Notes under the pieces: generated by a model
Database searches by the model: none
Told to the model about the DNA's origin: nothing
What the model saw: the letters and a program-made list of their open reading frames with translations, nothing else
Translations under genes and position numbers: made by a program
UHGV virus genome: UHGV-0000020
Strand: one strand, 5' to 3'
DNA: 28,569 nt
Origin: a virus
In this document: positions 10,533-27,087 of the stretch, in pieces
Layout: the number at the start of each line of letters is the position of its first letter
Position numbering within the stretch: the stretch's first letter is position 1

Positions 10533-11164
10533 ATCGGCGCTCCTGTCTCGCCGCCACTGTCGCCGGGGTGTTTATGGGTATGCAGCACTTTCCCGTTTGA
10601 AGAAAGCGAGCCGCCGGTGTGGGTAATATCTCCTTTCATCGTCCCGCCTTTTTGCACTTCGAGCGTGGAGGTGATCAGCTTGTTGGTGCAGACCACTTCC
10701 GGCGTATCGAGCGTGATACGGGTTTCCGCTTTCACCAGCACGACCGGCACCGTGGCGGTAATGGAATCAGACGCTGTAACGTCGGCGGTTTTAATGCCAC
10801 TCACTGTCAGGTCGCTGGTTTCAGGTTCGTACTCGATAACCGCACCGTCAGGAAAGGTGATATGCAATGCGTCAGCGGAGGCCGACGGTGCCGGGTGGTC
10901 ATCCGAGTAAATACCCGGCAGCACAAACGCCGTATCGAGCTCACCGCCCACGGCCAGAATTAAAACCTGTTCGTCAACGGAAGGAGCCCACCATGTACGC
11001 GAGCGACCGGCGCGATGCGTCAGCCACTGAAGCCAGTCGGTAATAATGCCGCCCGTCTGGACACGACAGCGCCCCGCGTCGAGGTCAGTCTCGACCACGA
11101 CGCCGGTGCGAATCATGTTGCGCAGCAGGCGCGAAAGTTCCTGAAGAGATGCGAGAGTATTCAT
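10529..11164 (-). CDS. V: Baseplate spike / assembly protein V
   Basis: ATG at 11164 (MNTLASLQELSRLLRNMIRTGVVVETDL...), about 211 aa, C-terminal HTHKHPGDSGG motif of gpV. Confidence 0.9.
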   Translation of the reverse strand: MNTLASLQELSRLLRNMIRTGVVVETDLDAGRCRVQTGGIITDWLQWLTHRAGRSRTWWAPSVDEQVLILAVGGELDTAFVLPGIYSDDHPAPSASADALHITFPDGAVIEYEPETSDLTVSGIKTADVTASDSITATVPVVLVKAETRITLDTPEVVCTNKLITSTLEVQKGGTMKGDITHTGGSLSSNGKVLHTHKHPGDSGGETGAPI

Positions 11165-11232
11165 ACAAGAGAGGATGCCGCCCCATGTTCGGAGCGGCAA
11201 TTGATGCGGGTTTTACTGGCGATGACACAACG

Positions 11233-11682
11233 TTAACGCGAAAGTTTTTCGATGATTATCGCCTCCACGGCTTTTCGGTCGTCATCACTGAATCCGATAA
11301 GCGGTCGGGCGTCATACTGTACCGGCTTACTGTTTCTCGACGGTTTGTCTTTGAGGCCGTACTGATGCACATTTGCCATCCGTTGCACCTTCCCGGTAAA
11401 TTCCACGACCGCCGCGTCATTGCCGCCGGTGGCTTTCATAAAGCGATTTGTACGCAGCTTCGCGAACATTTCACGCTTAACCCGGCCTTTCTTCGCTTTT
11501 ACCGGCTGGCGCTTACGTGCGGCATACGGTGTGCCATCCGGTGACGTCTGCGATTTAATGCGACGTTGCTGACGGGTGCGCAGGGTCTTCGCGATATCTG
11601 CGGTCATTTTCCGACGGGCAGACGGTGACAGCGCGGCAATCAGCCCGGCGAGCTTATCGTCAAACGCCTTAAACTCGTTCAT
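11233..11682 (-). CDS. S: Tail completion protein S
   Basis: 149 aa, position between R and V. Confidence 0.8.
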   Translation of the reverse strand: MNEFKAFDDKLAGLIAALSPSARRKMTADIAKTLRTRQQRRIKSQTSPDGTPYAARKRQPVKAKKGRVKREMFAKLRTNRFMKATGGNDAAVVEFTGKVQRMANVHQYGLKDKPSRNSKPVQYDARPLIGFSDDDRKAVEAIIIEKLSR

Positions 11683-12142
11683 GCCATTCGCTCACCAGTT
11701 CACCATGAACATACAGCATCATTGGCCGCGTTACCGGCTCCGGTGGTTGCGGTTCCGGTGCGTGCTCAACGTGCAACTGGGTACCCACTTCTTTAACGAG
11801 GGTTCGCTCGGTCAGCATCAGGCTGATACTGAGGTCGATACTGTCGTTATCATTGATATCGGCAAAATAGGTGAAGCCTTTTTTGCGCCCTTCGTCGGTC
11901 GTCATAATGTCGGCCTGATGGACGCGCAACCATGCCTGAATCGGCACGAGGATCAAATCGATATCGCCGGGAAAGTCCTCCACAATCACATTCAGCGTGT
12001 ACTGATTTTCAAACGACAACGAGGTCGCCAGCGTCGAGGCGAGTTTTCCGTTATCGATGAAAATGCGCAGCATATCCGGGTTTCCCCTCAGTACCGGCAC
12101 GGCGTCATTCAGTGCGGCGCGCAGACTCTTTGGTTTGTACAT
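11669..12142 (-). CDS. R: Tail completion protein R
   Basis: ATG at 12142 (MYKPKSLRAALNDAVPVLRGNPDMLRIFIDNG...), about 157 aa; the longer track ORF uses an upstream start overlapping lysC. Confidence 0.8.
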   Translation of the reverse strand: MYKPKSLRAALNDAVPVLRGNPDMLRIFIDNGKLASTLATSLSFENQYTLNVIVEDFPGDIDLILVPIQAWLRVHQADIMTTDEGRKKGFTYFADINDNDSIDLSISLMLTERTLVKEVGTQLHVEHAPEPQPPEPVTRPMMLYVHGELVSEWHERV

Positions 12143-12395
12143 CGATTTTGTCCTGGCAGTTTTTAACGGCGCTGACCTGAAGTGCGCAACGTTCGAGGGC
12201 GCTTTCGAGCTGTCGAATGTCAGCACTCAGGTCGCCGTTGGTGTGTGGATCACTTCCCGGCATCGGGCATGGGCTCACCTTCGGGCAGGCGTTGTAAACA
12301 ATCACCGGCGTCGGTGCAGGCGGCGCGCTGGTGCAACCGACGCACAGCATCAGGAAGGTCAGCGCTATACCAGCGGCGAAGCTGTTCGTTTTCAT
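12105..12395 (-). CDS. lysC: Outer-membrane spanin LysC (Rz1-like lipoprotein)
   Basis: ATG at 12395 with GAGGT Shine-Dalgarno; MKTNSFAAGIALTFLMLCVGCTSAPPAPTP signal/lipobox-like N-terminus followed by a Pro-rich segment; begins out of frame inside lysB and extends into R. Confidence 0.75.
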   Translation of the reverse strand: MKTNSFAAGIALTFLMLCVGCTSAPPAPTPVIVYNACPKVSPCPMPGSDPHTNGDLSADIRQLESALERCALQVSAVKNCQDKIDVQTKESARRTE

Positions 12396-12663
12396 TGAGT
12401 AACCTCGTAATGGTTTGTTCGCGACGTTGCGCGCGAATACCAGCAGCGGCGAGCGAATCGCGCAAGGCGACCTGAGCAACCTCCTTCTGGTCGCTGACTT
12501 CATAGGCCAGTTTTAGCTGGCTTTTCAGCATCCCGATTAGCCGCTTTTGCTCGCTGGCGACGTCGTTCGCGCGGGTAAATGAGCCCGTAAGCTTTGTGTT
12601 TTCATGACGCAACCACGCCAGCCCGGCCACGGCCATAATCAACAGAACAATCAGCGTTTTCAT
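12250..12663 (-). CDS. lysB: Inner-membrane spanin LysB (Rz-like)
   Basis: 137 aa, N-terminal TM helix MKTLIVLLIMAVAGLAWL then a coiled-coil-like periplasmic domain; directly downstream of the endolysin. Confidence 0.8.
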   Translation of the reverse strand: MKTLIVLLIMAVAGLAWLRHENTKLTGSFTRANDVASEQKRLIGMLKSQLKLAYEVSDQKEVAQVALRDSLAAAGIRAQRREQTITRLLNENEQLRRWYSADLPDAVRRLHQRAACTDAGDCLQRLPEGEPMPDAGK

Positions 12664-13187
12664 TTAACCCCCTTCAGGCAGTAAGTGCGCTCGCGGTACC
12701 GGCGATTCTCCAGACCGGTACTTTTGACGCCGTTAACAAATACCCAGCGCGTGAGCTGGTCGCATGCCTGCCAGTACTGCTGATGTTTGAGGTGATAAAC
12801 CAGCGTTGAGCGACACGCCGCGCCGGTACCCACGTTAAACGCGAAGCTCACAAGCGCGTCATAGACCGGCTGCGGCATTTGCACCGGCACGCAGACCGCG
12901 AGCCGCTTTTCGACGGTCAGCACATCGGCGACAAGGTTCGTTGCCGCCTCGCGTTCGGTGATATCCCGTTTCGGTACCACCCCGGCAGTGTGGCCAATGC
13001 CTGACGTCCACACACCCGCGCTGCACTGGTACGGGCGCAACCGGCAACCTTCGAGGTCGGCAATCAGCGCAAGCCCGTCTGGCGAGGTGTGAAGCAAACG
13101 AAAGTCGGGCACCAGTGTCGCCAGCGCCAGCACGACGGCCACACTGCACTTTTTAACGATTGAGGCCACGGATAACCCCCTTATCAA
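12660..13187 (-). CDS. K: SAR endolysin (GH24 lysozyme, P1 Lyz-like); start codon uncertain (TTG 13187 or GTG 13169)
   Basis: N-terminal weakly hydrophobic signal-anchor-release segment SVASIVKKCSVAVVLALATLV, then LEGCRLRPYQCSAGVWTSGIGHT, matching the T4-lysozyme E-x8-D/C-x5-T catalytic signature with Cys in place of Asp. Confidence 0.8.
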   Translation of the reverse strand: MIRGLSVASIVKKCSVAVVLALATLVPDFRLLHTSPDGLALIADLEGCRLRPYQCSAGVWTSGIGHTAGVVPKRDITEREAATNLVADVLTVEKRLAVCVPVQMPQPVYDALVSFAFNVGTGAACRSTLVYHLKHQQYWQACDQLTRWVFVNGVKSTGLENRRYRERTYCLKGVK

Positions 13188-13362
13188 TCCCCATTGAAAC
13201 GAGATAGCGGTATGTCTGGCGGCGGTACCAGAAATTCACCAGCGCGGTAAAAATGGCGCAGCCACCGCCGATATAAATCGCGAGCCGTTCCGGCGTCTGC
13301 GTACCGAAATACGCCAGCGCCACTGACAGCCAGTAGGTCAGGAATGTCGTGATTTTTTCCAT
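13153..13362 (-). CDS. Small holin (two predicted TM helices; candidate pinholin)
   Basis: ATG at 13362 (MEKITTFLTYWLSVALAYFG...GGGCAIFTALVNFWY...) with an in-frame GTG four codons upstream (possible dual-start); sits between X and the SAR endolysin. Confidence 0.7.
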   Translation of the reverse strand: MEKITTFLTYWLSVALAYFGTQTPERLAIYIGGGCAIFTALVNFWYRRQTYRYLVSMGIDKGVIRGLNR

Positions 13363-13364
13363 AG

Positions 13365-13568
13365 TCAGTCCCACAGGTTTACGGTCTCCGATACCGGCGC
13401 GGCGTCCACTTCTGGCAGACTGACCGCCGTGCCGTGAGGCAGAATCACGCCCAGCTCAGCGAGCCCCGGATTAGCCAGTAACACCGCCTCGACCACACCC
13501 TCGGTGCGCCCGTAATGGCGCTGACAAAGGGTGTCGAGCGTGTCGCCCTGATGCGCGATGACGTTCAT
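13365..13568 (-). CDS. X: Tail protein X (LysM-like)
   Basis: ATG at 13568, 67 aa: MNVIAHQGDTLDTLCQRHYGRTEGVVEAVLLANPGLAELGVILPHGTAVSLPEVDAAPVSETVNLWD, the conserved gpX pattern. Confidence 0.9.
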   Translation of the reverse strand: MNVIAHQGDTLDTLCQRHYGRTEGVVEAVLLANPGLAELGVILPHGTAVSLPEVDAAPVSETVNLWD

Positions 13569-14068
13569 CAGATTTGCCCCACAATGCAGCGCGCTTTGTC
13601 CTGGATACGTGCGACTGACCAGCGCATATCCCGCCACATTTCATCGATAGTGCTGTCGATGCTGTCAGCCTTTTTATCCCCCTTCGCGCTGGCGTCGACG
13701 CCGCGATAACGCTCGTACAGCGTGGCGGTTGTCATTGCACATACGGCGTTGAAGTAATGGAAGACGCGCACGCTTTCCCCGTCGAGCTCATCCGTCGGCA
13801 CATCTTCAAGACGGGTAAAACCGGCACTGACCTGAAGGTCTCGCCATTCGTGCAGCTCGGCGTTGGTTTCTGCCATCCCGTTTTTAATCGCCCGACGCAG
13901 GCGCACCGGGGTAACGGTCTGTTCGAGTCGCATTTCTTCACGCACGCGCTTCGGGTCGATATCCGGGAAAAAGGCGGTATTTTTTATCACCGGCTCATCA
14001 TCCGGCGCAGGCGGGATGACCAGCGGGTCGCGCTTCTGCGTCGGGTTACTCATCACTATCGTGGTCAT
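13568..14068 (-). CDS. L: Head completion / stabilisation protein L
   Basis: ATG at 14068 with GAGGT Shine-Dalgarno (the track ORF start is an upstream TTG); ...LYERYRGVDASAKGDKKADSIDSTIDEMWRDMRWSVARIQDKARCIVGQI C-terminus typical of gpL. Confidence 0.85.
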   Translation of the reverse strand: MTTIVMSNPTQKRDPLVIPPAPDDEPVIKNTAFFPDIDPKRVREEMRLEQTVTPVRLRRAIKNGMAETNAELHEWRDLQVSAGFTRLEDVPTDELDGESVRVFHYFNAVCAMTTATLYERYRGVDASAKGDKKADSIDSTIDEMWRDMRWSVARIQDKARCIVGQI

Positions 14069-14165
14069 GACTACCTCAGAAATTAGGTGGGCGGTGGACG
14101 CCGGTCGCAGTTCCGATGAAACATCGACATTGACCAGCGTGCCGCCCGGCGCGGGGCGCGTTCGG

Positions 14166-14921
14166 TTAACCGGCAACTTTCTTCGGACGTCCTCGCCCTC
14201 GTTTTGCCGGTGAATTCGTGTTTTTAGCCGGTGTCTTTTTTGACGCTTTAGACGCGGTCTTTTTGACGGCAACCGGCTTCGGGTTCAGCTCACGTTTGAG
14301 CGTCTCAACGTCTTTACGCACGCCGACATGAGGGTCGAGCTGTAAAGCCCGTTGCAGGTGCGCCAGCGCATCATTGAGCTGACCTCTTTCTCGCAGGGTC
14401 AGACCCGTAACTTTATGCAGTCGGGCGCGCACTTCATCAGGCATATCGGCGGCAAGCGTCAGCTCAATGACGCTCAGTAGCTCGGATGCGTCGACCGGCT
14501 CACCTGCGGCGCGGGCGCGCAGTGCGGCAAGCGCCACCTCTTCAGCCAGCATGTACGGCGCGGAGCGGGCATGGCCCGGCATTGACAGGTTGTAGCGCAG
14601 CGCATAACGGGCAATCTCAATCGCGCCGGTGATATCACCGGCATCGAGACGCCAGAGCATCACCGTCATCAGAATGTCATCCTGTGCGCCGGTGCCGTTT
14701 TCCAGCACGCCAGCGACCCACGGCAGATACAGCGGCAGCAGCTCGCGTTTCTTTGCCGCTTTGCGCTCTTTCGAATGGATTGTTTTTAGCGTCCGACGGT
14801 CTCCGGCCAGCTTGACGAGCATTTGCTCGTAAGCGGAAGCATTACGCAACGGGGCGTTATCCCGTTGCGATGCTTTACTGGCCGAGACCCGCATCGCGTG
14901 ACGCTGTGCGGGGCTCGCCAT
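14166..14921 (-). CDS. M: Terminase small (endonuclease) subunit M
   Basis: 251 aa, MASPAQRHAMRVSASKA... and basic C-terminal tail; between N and L. Confidence 0.9.
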   Translation of the reverse strand: MASPAQRHAMRVSASKASQRDNAPLRNASAYEQMLVKLAGDRRTLKTIHSKERKAAKKRELLPLYLPWVAGVLENGTGAQDDILMTVMLWRLDAGDITGAIEIARYALRYNLSMPGHARSAPYMLAEEVALAALRARAAGEPVDASELLSVIELTLAADMPDEVRARLHKVTGLTLRERGQLNDALAHLQRALQLDPHVGVRKDVETLKRELNPKPVAVKKTASKASKKTPAKNTNSPAKRGRGRPKKVAG

Positions 14922-14924
14922 CGG

Positions 14925-16079
14925 TTACGCCTCCCCGCCTTCAGTGGTGTCAGCCGGGGCGGTAACGCCCATTGCCTGTACCGCTTTCACAATCGCGGCG
15001 GCGAATGCGTCCGCGCTGGTCGGCTCGGTCGAGGCGTCCTCTTCAGGATCCAGAATCTCGATGTTTTCAATCAGGCAACCGGCTTCGTAGTCTTCGATAA
15101 CAAAGTCGACTTTGACCTGCTCGTAGTTTTCCACGCGGTCGAGTTTGGGGTTTTCGATGATGTGGCGGCGGTGACCGTCCTCATACAGATAGATAGAAAT
15201 GTTATCCAGCGTGGTGATAAAAATACTGTTCGCCGGGAAGAACGGTGCGCGCACCGCCTGCAACTGACCGATGGTTTTCTGGCTGATAATCAGCTCACCG
15301 GCGAGCTGTTCCGTATTCGCCTGGAATTTGTTAATCATCGGGAAGTATTTGTCGGTCAGGATGCGACGGCCACAAATAACCACCATTTCCGGGTTTTCGC
15401 GGTGAATCTCTTCGACCAGCGACTCGAATGCATCCATCACCAGCGCGTCAAGGTTCGCGTAATGACCACCCTTGCCAATCTTGATGGTATTTGACGTCAC
15501 ATTACCGTCAGCGTCGGTAATGCTGGACATGACGCGCTCAGGCGCATCGTTGCGGTATTTCTGCAACCAGCCCACAGCCACATCCTGAAGCAGTGGATTT
15601 TGTTTGCGGTCGGACGTCGCCGCGCGGGTCACACCGTTAAAGCCAATGGTGATGTAGTCCAGCGCCTGACGCTTGATGATGGCGTTACGGATTCGAATCT
15701 GGAAATCCTGATAGCGCGCCCACAGGTCGAGCTTGTTGTAATGAAGGTGATAATCGAAGTTGACCGGGTTACAGAAGTAACGGTATGCATCCAGTTTCGA
15801 GAAATCAGCGGTCTGACGCTCGACGCCGTTCGCGGTGTCTGCGTTACTGGCAATCGTGCCGGTGACATCGATACCGACTTTCTCTTCGGTCAGTTCGCTC
15901 ACCGTCACCATGTTGATGAGCTTCAGGAAGGAAGACGACTGCTGGATTTTATCAAAAAGCGTTTGCGTGACGGACGGCTCAACGTTGAATTTCTTGTTAA
16001 GGTCGGCCACTTCGACGCCGTTCAGCTCGGCGATACGGCTCAGGTACTGGTTGAACTTAAAGCGGGTTTCTTTACGCAT
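14925..16079 (-). CDS. N: Major capsid protein N
   Basis: 384 aa, MRKETRFKFNQYLSRIAELNGV...DLWARYQDFQIRIRNAIIKRQALD, hallmark P2 gpN sequence. Confidence 0.95.
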   Translation of the reverse strand: MRKETRFKFNQYLSRIAELNGVEVADLNKKFNVEPSVTQTLFDKIQQSSSFLKLINMVTVSELTEEKVGIDVTGTIASNADTANGVERQTADFSKLDAYRYFCNPVNFDYHLHYNKLDLWARYQDFQIRIRNAIIKRQALDYITIGFNGVTRAATSDRKQNPLLQDVAVGWLQKYRNDAPERVMSSITDADGNVTSNTIKIGKGGHYANLDALVMDAFESLVEEIHRENPEMVVICGRRILTDKYFPMINKFQANTEQLAGELIISQKTIGQLQAVRAPFFPANSIFITTLDNISIYLYEDGHRRHIIENPKLDRVENYEQVKVDFVIEDYEAGCLIENIEILDPEEDASTEPTSADAFAAAIVKAVQAMGVTAPADTTEGGEA

Positions 16080-16111
16080 GGTTTTTCTTTTCCTTCAGGG
16101 TAATCGGGTTA

Positions 16112-16948
16112 TCAGCAGTCGGTCAGCGTGGTCGTCACAACATCGCCACCAGTGCTCAGCTTGCGGCGCGACTGCGTGATGCTTTCGGTTTTATCCAGCG
16201 TGGTTTTGATGGTGTTGAGTTGCTGCGTGGTAGTAGTGACCTGTGCGGTCAGCGACTGCTTGACGGCGGCGAGGTCGCTTTCAATCTTACTGAAGCGTGC
16301 CTCGGCACTTTCACCGCCGGTCTGTACCTGCTCGGCGATAGCGGTCACAGCTTCGTGCACGTCACTGAATCGCGCATCGTCGCTGACCTGTTTACGGCTG
16401 AAAATACCTTTCACGGTGTCGCTCAGTTTGACGAAAAGGCTTTCGGGCTGGTCTTCAAATTCCAGCTCGGCGAGGGTCGCCACAGAAAACAGGTCGTCGG
16501 GCTGTTCTTTTTTACCGGCGGCGCAGAATTGCAGGTATTCAGTCCCAAGGCTTGCCGGGTCATCCGTCACAGCCAGGCCGATGAGGTGGCATTTGCCGGT
16601 ATCGGCAAAATTCGGGCGAATTTCCATCGAGGTATAAACCTTCTGGCCCTTGTCCAGCATGGCGAGCAGGTTGTCGAGCGGTGCGATTTTGCCGTACAGC
16701 GCCAGCTTGCCGTTGAGCGCCGAATCATCGTCAATCACTTCGGCTTTCAGTTCGATGACGTCGCCGTAGCGACAGAATGGTGTATCGGGAACAACGCTGC
16801 GGATATGCTCCAGATTGATACGGCAACCGTAGACGCGCGGGTCAAAGCCGTCGGCCATTTCCTGAATTTCTTGCTTGCTGATTTTGCGACCGTCGCAGGT
16901 GTCACCCTCGACGCCGATGCGAAACCATTTAGAGATTTTTTTTGCCAT
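16112..16948 (-). CDS. O: Capsid scaffolding protein O
   Basis: 278 aa, MAKKISKWFRIGVEGDTCDGRKISKQEIQEMADGFDP... typical gpO. Confidence 0.9.
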   Translation of the reverse strand: MAKKISKWFRIGVEGDTCDGRKISKQEIQEMADGFDPRVYGCRINLEHIRSVVPDTPFCRYGDVIELKAEVIDDDSALNGKLALYGKIAPLDNLLAMLDKGQKVYTSMEIRPNFADTGKCHLIGLAVTDDPASLGTEYLQFCAAGKKEQPDDLFSVATLAELEFEDQPESLFVKLSDTVKGIFSRKQVSDDARFSDVHEAVTAIAEQVQTGGESAEARFSKIESDLAAVKQSLTAQVTTTTQQLNTIKTTLDKTESITQSRRKLSTGGDVVTTTLTDC

Positions 16949-17113
16949 TAGTCAGGTGTCCTGAGTTGGGTTATCGGGTCGGATGTAGTTTCCCGACTCC
17001 GCGCCCGACCAGCCACCGGTTACAGAAGTGCAACCCCTGACACAACAGGGGGTTAGCGATTCATTCTCCCGGAATCTTTAGCCTTGCCGTGTACTCATAA
17101 CGGCGAGGTTGTA
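16949..17113. promoter_or_regulatory. Divergent late promoter region between O and P (expected Ogr-dependent); elements not resolved
   Basis: 165-bp intergenic spacer between divergently transcribed O and P, the position of the late promoters in P2. Confidence 0.5.
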
Positions 17114-18883
17114 ATGACTCACACCACAGACACATCACTGGTTAATGACCCGCGACGACAGGCGGCATTGCTTTTCTGGCAGGGGTATTCCGTGCCGCAA
17201 ATCGCCGAGCAATTGCAGGTCAAACGGCCAACAGTGCAGAGCTGGAAGCAGCGCGGTAAATGGGAAGAGACAGCCCCGTTAAACCGGGTCGAGTTCACTC
17301 TCGAAGCGCGATTAATTCAGCTCTATGCAAAACCTGACCTGACGGCCCACGACTTTAAAGTCGCTGACTTTCTGGCGCGCCAGATGGAGCGGCTCGCGCG
17401 GGTGAATCGCTACGGCCAGACCGGCAACGAAGCGGATTTAAATCCGAACGTCGCCAACCGAAACAAAGGGGAAAAGAAGAAGCCGAAAAAGAACTTTTTC
17501 AGCGAAGAGGCTATCGAGAAACTCGAAGAAATTTTCCTCGACCAGTCTTTTGACTATCAGCTCGAATGGTGGCGCGCGGGGCTGGAACATCGTATCCGGC
17601 ACATTCTGAAATCACGCCAGATTGGCGCGACGTTCTACTTTGCGCGTGAAGCACTAATGAGAGCGCTCAGTACCGGCAATAATCAGATTTTTTTATCAGC
17701 CAGTAAGACGCAGGCGTATGTATTTCGAGAGTACATCATCGCCTTTGCCCGACAGGTTGATGTCGAGCTAACCGGCGACCCGATTGTGCTCGGCAACAAT
17801 GGCGCGAAATTGATTTTTCTTGGCACTAACTCCAATACGGCCCAAAGCCACAACGGCGACCTCTATGTCGATGAAGAATTCTGGATCCCCAATTTCCAGA
17901 AGCTAAAAAAAGTCTCTTCGGGTATGTCATCGCAGGAGCATTTACGCACGACCTATTTTTCGACCCCCTCATCGCTGGCGCACGGTGCCTATCCCTTCTG
18001 GTCGGGTGAACAGTTCAATAAAGGGCGTACCGACAAAAGCGAGCGCGTCGACATCGATATCAGTCACGCCGCGCTCGCGAAGGGTGTTGCCTGCCCGGAC
18101 GGGCAGTGGCGACAGATTGTCACACTTGAGGACGCGCTCGCCAAGGGATGCACCCTGTTTAACATTGATACGCTGAAGCGCGAAAACAGCGTTGATGACT
18201 TCCGCAACCTGTATATGTGCGAATTCGTCGACGACAAAGCGTCGGTATTCCCGTTCGAAGAATTGCAACGCTGCATGGTCGACAGCCTCGAAGTGTGGGC
18301 CGACTACGCGCCATTCGCCGACCGGCCATACGGTCATCGCCCGGTATGGGTCGGCTATGACCCGTCGTTACGTGGCGACAGTGCCGGTTGCGTGGTAATT
18401 GCGCCGCCAGCCATCGCCGGGGGCAAATTCCGCATCCTTGAGCGCCACCAGTGGAAGGGCATGGACTTCGCGCAGCAGGCCGAATCCATTCGCGAGCTCA
18501 CGCAGAAATATAACGTCGAGTACATCGGTATCGATGCGACCGGTCTCGGTCAGGGCGTGTTCCAGCTTGTTCGCTCGTTCTATCCGGCAGCGCGTGAAAT
18601 TCGCTACACGCCGGAAATGAAAACCGCAATGGTGCTCAAAGCGAAGGACACCATCGGGCGCGGGTGCCTTGAGTACGACGTCAGCGCGACCGACCTCACA
18701 CAGTCGTTTATGTCTATTCGCAAGACCATGACCAGCAGCGGGCGCAGTGCGACCTATGAAGCCAGCCGCACCGAGGAAGCCAGTCATGCCGACCTCGCAT
18801 GGGCAACCATGCACGTACTAATCAACGAGCCGCTCACCGCCGCCAGCGGCCAGCAGTCATCCAGCATTATGGAGTGGAATTAA
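17114..18883 (+). CDS. P: Terminase large (ATPase) subunit P
   Basis: ATG at 17114 with GAGG Shine-Dalgarno (the track ORF starts at an upstream TTG); 589 aa; stop overlaps the Q start by 1 nt. Confidence 0.9.
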   Translation: MTHTTDTSLVNDPRRQAALLFWQGYSVPQIAEQLQVKRPTVQSWKQRGKWEETAPLNRVEFTLEARLIQLYAKPDLTAHDFKVADFLARQMERLARVNRYGQTGNEADLNPNVANRNKGEKKKPKKNFFSEEAIEKLEEIFLDQSFDYQLEWWRAGLEHRIRHILKSRQIGATFYFAREALMRALSTGNNQIFLSASKTQAYVFREYIIAFARQVDVELTGDPIVLGNNGAKLIFLGTNSNTAQSHNGDLYVDEEFWIPNFQKLKKVSSGMSSQEHLRTTYFSTPSSLAHGAYPFWSGEQFNKGRTDKSERVDIDISHAALAKGVACPDGQWRQIVTLEDALAKGCTLFNIDTLKRENSVDDFRNLYMCEFVDDKASVFPFEELQRCMVDSLEVWADYAPFADRPYGHRPVWVGYDPSLRGDSAGCVVIAPPAIAGGKFRILERHQWKGMDFAQQAESIRELTQKYNVEYIGIDATGLGQGVFQLVRSFYPAAREIRYTPEMKTAMVLKAKDTIGRGCLEYDVSATDLTQSFMSIRKTMTSSGRSATYEASRTEEASHADLAWATMHVLINEPLTAASGQQSSSIMEWN

Positions 18884-26223: not shown

Positions 26224-27087
26224 ATGAGTTCTGGGCTTGATGTTCAGTGGCGCATCGGTGCGGCAAATGGAGTTTTAGAGCGCTTGATGTCTGCGTATGG
26301 CGTGAAGATGCAGAAAGATTTGGCTGACCTGCTGGGGATTGCAAAACATAGCGTGAGTGGTTGGGTTCAGCGCGATGCGATACCGGGCAATATCATCGTG
26401 AGATGCTGTCTCGATACTGGCGCTGATATCAACTGGCTTGTAAATGGTGAACTTGCAAATGCAAACCTCGATCTCCAGCATAGTCGTTTGAAAGGCAAAG
26501 AACTCTATGACGAAATAATGACTAACGGTGGTAAAACCGTATTACGCCGTATTTTGGATGCGTATGGTTTTACGATGCAAAAAGAACTTGGTGATTTGCT
26601 AGGCATTTCCTCTGGCACCATCAGCACTTGGGTTCGTCGAGAGTTCTTTCCGGGGGATGTAGTAGTCGCCTGTGCACTTGATACCGGAGTTTCCCTTGAG
26701 TGGTTGGCTACTGGCAAAGGGCAAATGCTGGATAGTTCATCGAGAAAAAATGCTATTCAGCAAGTAATAAAAAAATGTCGATTAGAAGCCGGAGAACTCA
26801 AAGATGCAGGTGAGTGGCATCCTGACCCTTCAATGGTTCCCGACGCTCACGACAAGCTCATTTATATAGTTGGTGTTACATCATCTTGGTTAATAGATAA
26901 AGCAGTGCTGAATGTATCTAATGGCAGATGGCTCATAAGCATTGATGGTGCTTTTGACGTTTTCGACGTGATTCGATTACCAGGCGGCAAGGTTCGCCTA
27001 TCAAATAAAAATGCAGAATTTGAATGTAATCTTGCAGATATCACACCAGCCGGGGCTGTTATTTTTACCTTGGAAAAACACATATAA
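26224..27087 (+). CDS. cI: Immunity repressor, 186 CI-type, with tandemly duplicated N-terminal DNA-binding domain
   Basis: 287 aa; two homologous about 65-aa repeats (residues ~13-75 and ~103-166; LERLMSAYGVKMQKDLADLLGI...SGWVQRDAIPG...CCLDTGADINWL vs LRRILDAYGFTMQKELGDLLGI...STWVRREFFPG...CALDTGVSLEWL) resembling the phage 186 CI N-terminal domain, plus a C-terminal domain; divergent from the early operon. Confidence 0.75.
   Translation: MSSGLDVQWRIGAANGVLERLMSAYGVKMQKDLADLLGIAKHSVSGWVQRDAIPGNIIVRCCLDTGADINWLVNGELANANLDLQHSRLKGKELYDEIMTNGGKTVLRRILDAYGFTMQKELGDLLGISSGTISTWVRREFFPGDVVVACALDTGVSLEWLATGKGQMLDSSSRKNAIQQVIKKCRLEAGELKDAGEWHPDPSMVPDAHDKLIYIVGVTSSWLIDKAVLNVSNGRWLISIDGAFDVFDVIRLPGGKVRLSNKNAEFECNLADITPAGAVIFTLEKHI

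Follow-up and report, generated by a model that had tools for sequence, protein, structure and literature searches.

A predicted P1 Lyz-type endolysin and a probable pinholin in the lysis cassette of a P2-like prophage

The subject of this analysis is the pair of lysis genes, a holin and an endolysin, carried by UHGV virus genome UHGV-0000020 (28,569 nucleotides, nt; this whole stretch of DNA is referred to as the window). Taken from a metagenome contig, the window is an almost complete P2/186-like prophage, and the two genes, which a preliminary description had located at 12660-13374, both lie there on the minus strand. Judged by its sequence, the endolysin is likely a GH24 enzyme of the regulatory type represented by P1 Lyz, i.e. 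tethered by a signal-anchor-release (SAR) helix and switched by cysteines. The accompanying holin is probably a pinholin, an assignment that its distant homology and its architecture support. P2-like prophages of a widespread group thus appear to have swapped the holin-endolysin pair of P2 (Y and K) for a pinholin-family holin and a P1 Lyz-type SAR endolysin. This type of mechanism is already known, dating from 2005, and the cassette has already been described and annotated in related phages; the value of the analysis lies mainly in correct annotation, with little significance beyond it.

Catalytic motif, cysteines and anchor of the endolysin

The N-terminal string KKCSVAVVLALATLV, quoted in the preliminary description, is present in the endolysin, and downstream of it the protein reads E40-G-C42-RLRPYQ-C49-SAGVW-T55, i.e. 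E-x8-C-x5-T. In P1 Lyz, according to work attributed to Xu and colleagues (2005, Science 307:113; cited in PMC6116005), the triad Cys is reportedly locked in a disulfide until the Cys of the SAR domain exchanges after release from the membrane. All three cysteines of the window endolysin that this scheme calls for stand in exact register with those of P1 Lyz. The phmmer alignment pairs Cys8 with P1 Cys13, and EGCRLRPYQCSAGVWT with EGCRRDPYMCPAGVWT; in the printed alignment LEGCRLRPYQCSAGVWTSGIGHT stands opposite AEGCRRDPYMCPAGVWTDGIGNT, so that E40, C42, C49 and T55 correspond to E42, C44, C51 and T57 of P1 Lyz. A MAFFT alignment that included Lys of Haemophilus phage HP1 gave the same register and showed the same three Cys in HP1 Lys. 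C49 therefore occupies, at E+9, the position of the catalytic Asp, and C42 in EGC, at E+2, is the candidate caging partner.

Two other known arrangements differ at these positions. The phage 21 endolysin R21 and its DLP12 counterpart RrrD read LEGVSYIPYKDIVGVWT at the motif, with Val at E+2, Asp in the triad and no Cys in the SAR segment; their EGVSYIPYKD stands where the window endolysin reads EGCRLRPYQC, which lacks the Asp and carries the additional Cys. In Lyz103 of Erwinia phage ERA103, caging is said to involve a disulfide between two Cys that flank the catalytic Glu (C-E-x-x-C; attributed to Kuty and colleagues, 2010), whereas in the window endolysin Leu39 precedes E40 (DLEGC). The preliminary description had proposed a SAR segment containing a Cys, a Cys in place of the catalytic Asp and a P1 Lyz-type enzyme. 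Alignment to P1 Lyz and to P21 R bears this out on the points that a sequence can address, namely fold family, triad register, the Cys at the Asp position, the Cys at E+2 and the Cys of the anchor.

The SAR segment itself starts with K6 and K7, followed by a weakly hydrophobic stretch (C8-L26) that carries a single Cys, C8; a helix is predicted over residues 4-19 in the AlphaFold model. Window endolysin and P1 Lyz both contain seven Cys. Among 120 homologs with 78-100% identity all seven are invariant, save in five proteins gapped at the Cys8 column, and Cys8 is kept in each of the 115 full-length close homologs; the E40/C42/C49/T55 motif is invariant in all 120. The homologs found number 16,022. 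A wider survey covered the 150 best GH24 representatives at the 50% identity level (P0170-P0319). A SAR-like N-terminus occurs together with the E+2/E+9 Cys pair in 28 of them, and in 26 of these 28 the N-terminal half of the hydrophobic segment contains one Cys and no more. The remaining two start at the hydrophobic segment itself, perhaps as a result of truncation at the N-terminus. Four SAR-type proteins have Asp in the triad, and one of the four has such a SAR Cys (Fisher P 0.017, with kinship ignored). At the level of sequence, this co-occurrence of a SAR Cys with the Cys pair is what the P1 mechanism predicts.

The extent of the protein follows from its start codon. The mechanically called open reading frame (ORF; 12660-13187) opens at TTG and encodes 175 amino acids (aa). 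The TTG at 13187 was set aside in favour of the GTG at 13169, because the latter lies 6 nt after a Shine-Dalgarno sequence (AAGGGGG), because a 169-aa database protein (P0001) is 100% identical to the product read from it, and because the gene call on the source contig also uses it. The product matches Pfam Phage_lysozyme (PF00959) with E 1.7e-38 and 132 bits (cutoff 22.3). In a phmmer search of all Protein Data Bank (PDB) sequences the top match was P1 Lyz (1XJT, E 3.5e-21), with R21 and RrrD next, and PDB and Foldseek matches comprise P1 Lyz, R21 and P22 lysozyme. The best Foldseek match of the AlphaFold model was likewise P1 Lyz in its active form (1XJT; 1XJU is the inactive form), with TMq 0.71 over all 169 residues. 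The model was built from 32 close homologs and is of moderate confidence (mean predicted local distance difference test, pLDDT, 71.8).

Several observations weigh against the assignment to the P1 Lyz type. The uncharged core of the SAR segment spans only 14 residues, C8-P21, with D22 and R24 coming next, versus 24 in each of P1 Lyz and RrrD. The endolysin is 34% identical to P1 Lyz and 36% to the Asp-type RrrD, and the MAFFT alignment shows that it lacks an insertion specific to P1 and HP1, which in P1 Lyz amounts to ~11 residues after the FNVG motif. Furthermore, 66 of the 150 representatives lack a SAR domain and yet have a Cys at the Asp position, and 34 of these 66 also keep the E+2 Cys, so that the Cys pair alone is not diagnostic of regulation. 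Finally, pLDDT falls below 50 over residues 43-64, the hairpin with Cys49 and Thr55 (window 13007-13043), the rest of the domain being confident; the model was therefore used for the fold and not for disulfide geometry. The shallowness of the alignment could account for the low values, as could the existence of two conformations, which is known from P1 Lyz.

Some of these observations would suit control of the R21 type only, in which the SAR helix tethers the enzyme and, once released, refolds as part of the catalytic domain and makes the active site complete, with the Cys residues serving catalytic or structural roles and no disulfide switch. The body of the endolysin is slightly nearer to RrrD and R21, the insertion is missing, and the 66 SAR-less homologs make a plain catalytic role of the Cys at the Asp position possible. 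We nevertheless consider this explanation unlikely. It leaves Cys8 without a role in spite of its complete conservation among full-length close homologs, and it does not account for the SAR Cys that accompanies the equivalent of the C42/C49 pair in nearly all distant SAR-type relatives, always single and always in the N-terminal half of the helix, nor for the exact register of the trio with P1 Lyz. The short anchor, the RrrD-level identity, the missing insertion and the Cys at the Asp position of SAR-less homologs do, however, make it possible that a steric component like that of R21 contributes.

It is very improbable that the N-terminus is a cleavable Sec signal peptide and that the enzyme is simply secreted, like Lys44 of fOg44, with control by membrane energisation alone. 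The short core and an A-L-A at residues 15-17 resemble such a signal, but this sole AXA site lies in the middle of the hydrophobic run, only 10 residues past K7, with the run going on as TLVP, and cleavage there would remove the conserved Cys8, which together make the idea much less likely. Divergent homologs, moreover, retain the Cys and not the AXA site, and the signals of P1 Lyz and R21 remain uncleaved (PMC6116005).

By analogy with P1 Lyz, S21 and HP1, the P1 Lyz-type reading would translate into the following sequence of events. The lysozyme would be exported by Sec and would stay anchored in the inner membrane through its N-terminal SAR helix, which would not be cleaved. In this tethered form, Cys49, at the Asp position of E-x8-D/C-x5-T, would be held in a disulfide with Cys42, while Cys8 would lie buried at that end of the SAR helix which faces the cytoplasm. 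The holin, with its two transmembrane domains (TMDs) and probably forming small holes, would accumulate, trigger and collapse the membrane potential. The SAR helix would then exit the bilayer, and Cys8 would attack the Cys42-Cys49 bond, forming Cys8-Cys42 and freeing Cys49, upon which the lysozyme would refold and cut the murein. The spanins LysB and LysC would subsequently disrupt the outer membrane. Because of the shorter anchor and the missing insertion, the family could serve as a compact second model, after P1, for the disulfide-isomerisation switch.

As a separate observation, the SAR-less homologs with Cys at the Asp position fit the published idea that soluble endolysins can arise from P1 Lyz-like SAR endolysins.

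Family, topology and start codons of the holin

The holin contains two uncharged stretches, residues 4-24 (TMD1, mean Kyte-Doolittle hydropathy 0.76) and residues 27-46 (TMD2, mean 1.49), connected by a loop of two residues (ER) and followed by a basic C-terminus with a net charge of +3 over the last 20 residues. The hydropathy of TMD1 is close to that of the SAR-type TMD1 of EssD, a homolog of S21 (0.70), and TMD2 carries G32xxxA36xxxA40, which is kept across the holin family. The phrog_20 family to which the holin belongs (Table 1) is also matched by EssD (S21 type, E 1.7e-33), by the HP1 holin (E 9e-10) and by the holin of Escherichia phage Midge. Alignment of the holin family with EssD by hhalign (probability 61%, E 8e-5) places MEKITT opposite MDKLTT, so that the start of the 69-aa product falls at that of S21-68, the prototype pinholin. 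Among 20 members of the holin family, the P21 holin S model (PF04971) was matched by 20 and the HP1 holin model (PF16080) by 19, with best E values of 3e-5 and 1e-6, respectively. The HP1 holin kills cells without lysis or leakage of beta-galactosidase (PMC7312051). These results agree with the preliminary description, which had recognised a 69-aa holin with two transmembrane segments and suggested that it is the pinholin partner of the endolysin.

Set against the pinholin assignment are results obtained with the window protein itself. Its Pfam scores stay under the gathering cutoffs, with 18 bits versus 28.8 for the HP1 holin (PF16080) and 11.8 bits versus 26 for the P21 holin S (PF04971). 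When the holin was compared directly by BLASTP with the HP1 holin (E 2.9) and with EssD (E 0.04), neither match was significant, and only profile methods connect them. The P1 pinholin LydD and the P1 holin LydA were also considered as homologs and rejected: hhalign gave a probability of 0.2%, BLASTP gave no match, and the P1 proteins belong to another PHROG.

We regard it as rather unlikely that the protein is instead a canonical class II holin forming large holes, although SAR endolysins work with either type and P1 Lyz also functions with the canonical holins LydA and LydC (PMC9025707). Hole size is not readable from a sequence, and the sub-threshold Pfam scores would be in keeping with a canonical holin. 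However, the protein shares its PHROG with two experimentally supported pinholins, those of the S21 type and of HP1, and it is built like S21, with a weakly hydrophobic TMD1, a two-residue loop and a small-xxx-small face in TMD2. In addition, an adjoining SAR endolysin is the usual partner of a pinholin (PMC9025707).

The preliminary description had noted a possible dual start. Two in-frame start codons are present, the ATG at 13362 (69 aa) and a GTG at 13374 (73 aa, adding MGLT), with three codons between them. The upstream NTG and the following Gly and Leu codons are, however, fixed by the Leu-Trp-Asp-stop codons of the overlapping gene X, and the MGLT extension adds no positive charge, which makes the dual start weak evidence. 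In S21 the two starts (MKSM) are also three codons apart, but there the extension adds a Lys. The upstream start is an ATG in Midge, in Klebsiella phage RCIP0057 and in an Escherichia coli relative, versus GTG in the window. In a few holin homologs, Thr or Ile occupies the position of the second start, and these would depend on the upstream start.

A composite proposal that we consider improbable takes up both the anchor and the dual start. The enzyme would be a hybrid SAR endolysin with an R21-like body, a P1-type three-Cys switch and a short anchor, and might be controlled both covalently and sterically, or come free of the membrane more easily than P1 Lyz does; as a second and separate part, the upstream holin start inside X would set the holin/antiholin ratio by translational coupling and not by added charge.

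Apart from this, many database copies of the holin (P0121-P0167) are named 'primosomal protein' by NCBI/UniRef, apparently a wrong name that has spread from record to record for a holin of 69-73 aa with two TMDs.

Related cassettes in other phages

With P1 itself the window shares the type of endolysin and not the organisation of the cassette. P1 Lyz resembles the window endolysin in its GH24 fold, its single-Cys SAR segment and its seven Cys. In P1, however, lyz is followed by lydD, which encodes the pinholin of the lyz operon (PMC9025707), the spanin genes are not adjacent, and the window holin is unrelated to LydD.

A parallel with experimental support is HP1, a P2-like phage of Haemophilus (Peduoviridae), for which a pinholin and a SAR endolysin have been characterised experimentally and 49% identity to P1 Lyz was reported by the authors, in a paper that does not discuss the cysteines (PMC7312051). 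As in the window, a gene for a holin with two TMDs lies immediately upstream of the SAR endolysin gene and overlaps it, and a spanin gene comes next; HP1 Lys has both the SAR Cys and the EGC...C motif, and the two holins fall into the same PHROG. The endolysins are 32% identical, and the holins have no significant BLASTP similarity. Two further differences are that the HP1 cassette follows the tail tube genes and the window cassette follows X, and that HP1 hol has no dual start, unlike the window holin with its two in-frame starts.

The same layout as in the window, X-holin-endolysin-LysB/LysC, is found in Escherichia phage Midge, Klebsiella phage RCIP0057, Erwinia phage EtG and many Yersinia vB_YpM phages, and the cassette is also present in phage ENT4. 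The window endolysin is 84% identical to that of Midge and 86% to that of RCIP0057, and the holin is 72% identical to that of Midge. The records of Midge and RCIP0057 already annotate a 'SAR endolysin', the annotation in Midge citing P1 lysozyme (PMC12697156), and 'holin class II' is also used among related phages. With HP1, Midge, RCIP0057, EtG and Yersinia vB_YpM as examples, the arrangement is not unusual among P2-like phages. Similar DNA was found in 127 of 5,426 complete E. coli genomes, where RefSeq lists the endolysin as 'lysozyme' and the holin as 'hypothetical protein' or 'phage holin family protein', and matches also occur in Citrobacter, Klebsiella, Enterobacter, Yersinia and Erwinia phages.

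Midge differs from the window by an extra gene for a LysA-like putative antiholin between the endolysin and inner-membrane spanin genes (L001 1988-2419). The window has no such gene at the corresponding place (12660-12663), as the stop codon of the endolysin gene and the start codon of lysB overlap there. The LysA-like gene is likewise absent from the E. coli and RCIP0057 relatives, and the cassette thus exists with and without lysA.

Phage 21 (S21-68/R21) and DLP12 (essD/rrrD) resemble the window in pairing a pinholin with a SAR endolysin and in the holin PHROG, the endolysin body being identical to the extent given above. P2 and PsP3 (Y, K, lysA, lysB, lysC) share with the window the position of the lysis genes in the late operon and homologous LysB/LysC spanins. 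The P2-type endolysin, however, has no N-terminal anchor, and neither it nor the P2-type holin is related to its counterpart in the window. PsP3, examined as a P2-like precedent, was discarded: it carries Y/K-type genes of P2 at the same position, and these gave no BLASTP match to the window holin or endolysin, in line with the earlier remark that P2 has a different set-up.

Gene order, spanins and further observations

Besides the lysis genes, the window contains recognisable genes for portal, terminase, capsid, L, X, R, S, V, W, J, I, sheath, tube, gpD and gpA, for CI/CII-type regulators and for an integrase. On the minus strand the order is X, holin, endolysin and LysB/LysC, followed by the tail genes R and S (Table 1). 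The cassette is best explained as the lysis module that a P2-like (Peduoviridae) prophage carries within its late operon, flanked by tail gene X on one side and by tail genes R/S on the other. The genes are tightly packed: the stop codon of X lies 2 nt before the holin ATG, the last codons of X (Leu-Trp-Asp-stop) overlap the possible upstream holin start, the 5' end of the endolysin gene overlaps the 3' end of the holin gene by 17 nt, and the endolysin stop overlaps the lysB start in an ATGA. A scan of positions 11000-17200 for promoters and terminators yielded nothing above shuffled expectation, which fits genes embedded inside a late operon.

Table 1. Features of the lysis cassette and the adjoining tail gene X (window coordinates).
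Feature	Position	Strand	Length	Basis and remarks
Tail protein X gene	13365..13568	-	67 aa	Pfam Phage_tail_X E 3e-28; same 67-aa call on identical ENA contig; context only
Class II holin, probable pinholin	13153..13362	-	69 aa	ATG start; phrog_20 E 2.7e-18
Putative SAR endolysin, GH24 muramidase, predicted P1 Lyz regulatory type	12660..13169	-	169 aa	PF00959; P1 Lyz 1XJT/1XJU best PDB sequence matches
Predicted signal-anchor-release segment, residues 6-26 (KKCSVAVVLALATLVPDFRLL)	13092..13154	-		Cys8 alignment and conservation; Cys8 codon 13146-13148
Predicted catalytic/regulatory motif E40-G-C42-x6-C49-x5-T55	13005..13052	-		Column-for-column alignment with P1 Lyz and HP1 Lys
LysB, Rz-like inner-membrane spanin	12250..12663	-	137 aa	TIGR03495 phage_LysB; phrog_89
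LysC, Rz1-like outer-membrane lipoprotein spanin	12105..12395	-	96 aa	NF038368 P2_Rz1; Pfam LysC

The two spanins form a two-component pair of the P2 type, as indicated by family models and by the overlap of their genes. LysB scores 144 bits with its TIGR model (cutoff 92.75) and matches its PHROG with E 5e-49; LysC scores 122 bits with the P2_Rz1 model (cutoff 27) and matches the Pfam LysC family with E 6e-16. The lysC gene opens inside lysB in another frame and extends past its end. LysC has a signal peptide and the sequence LMLCVGC, and its N-terminal extension is conserved in Midge and in E. coli relatives.

On the source ENA contig, as in phages Midge and RCIP0057, LysC has been annotated or called as a protein of only 52 aa (window 12105-12395; L001 1433-1771; L005 10907-11065). 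This shorter product starts with MPGSDP and has neither signal peptide nor lipobox. An upstream in-frame sequence, MK(T/M)xxFAAGI..LMLC(V/A)GC, is conserved in the window, Midge and E. coli and lies inside the NCBIfam P2_Rz1 model, which makes the 96-aa LysC the likely real product.

Elsewhere in the window, a CI-type repressor ORF of 287 aa (26224-27087, plus strand) has two stretches that match the helix-turn-helix (HTH) domain Phage_CI_repr, in addition to a CI C-terminal domain; it is either an over-long call or contains a duplicated HTH.

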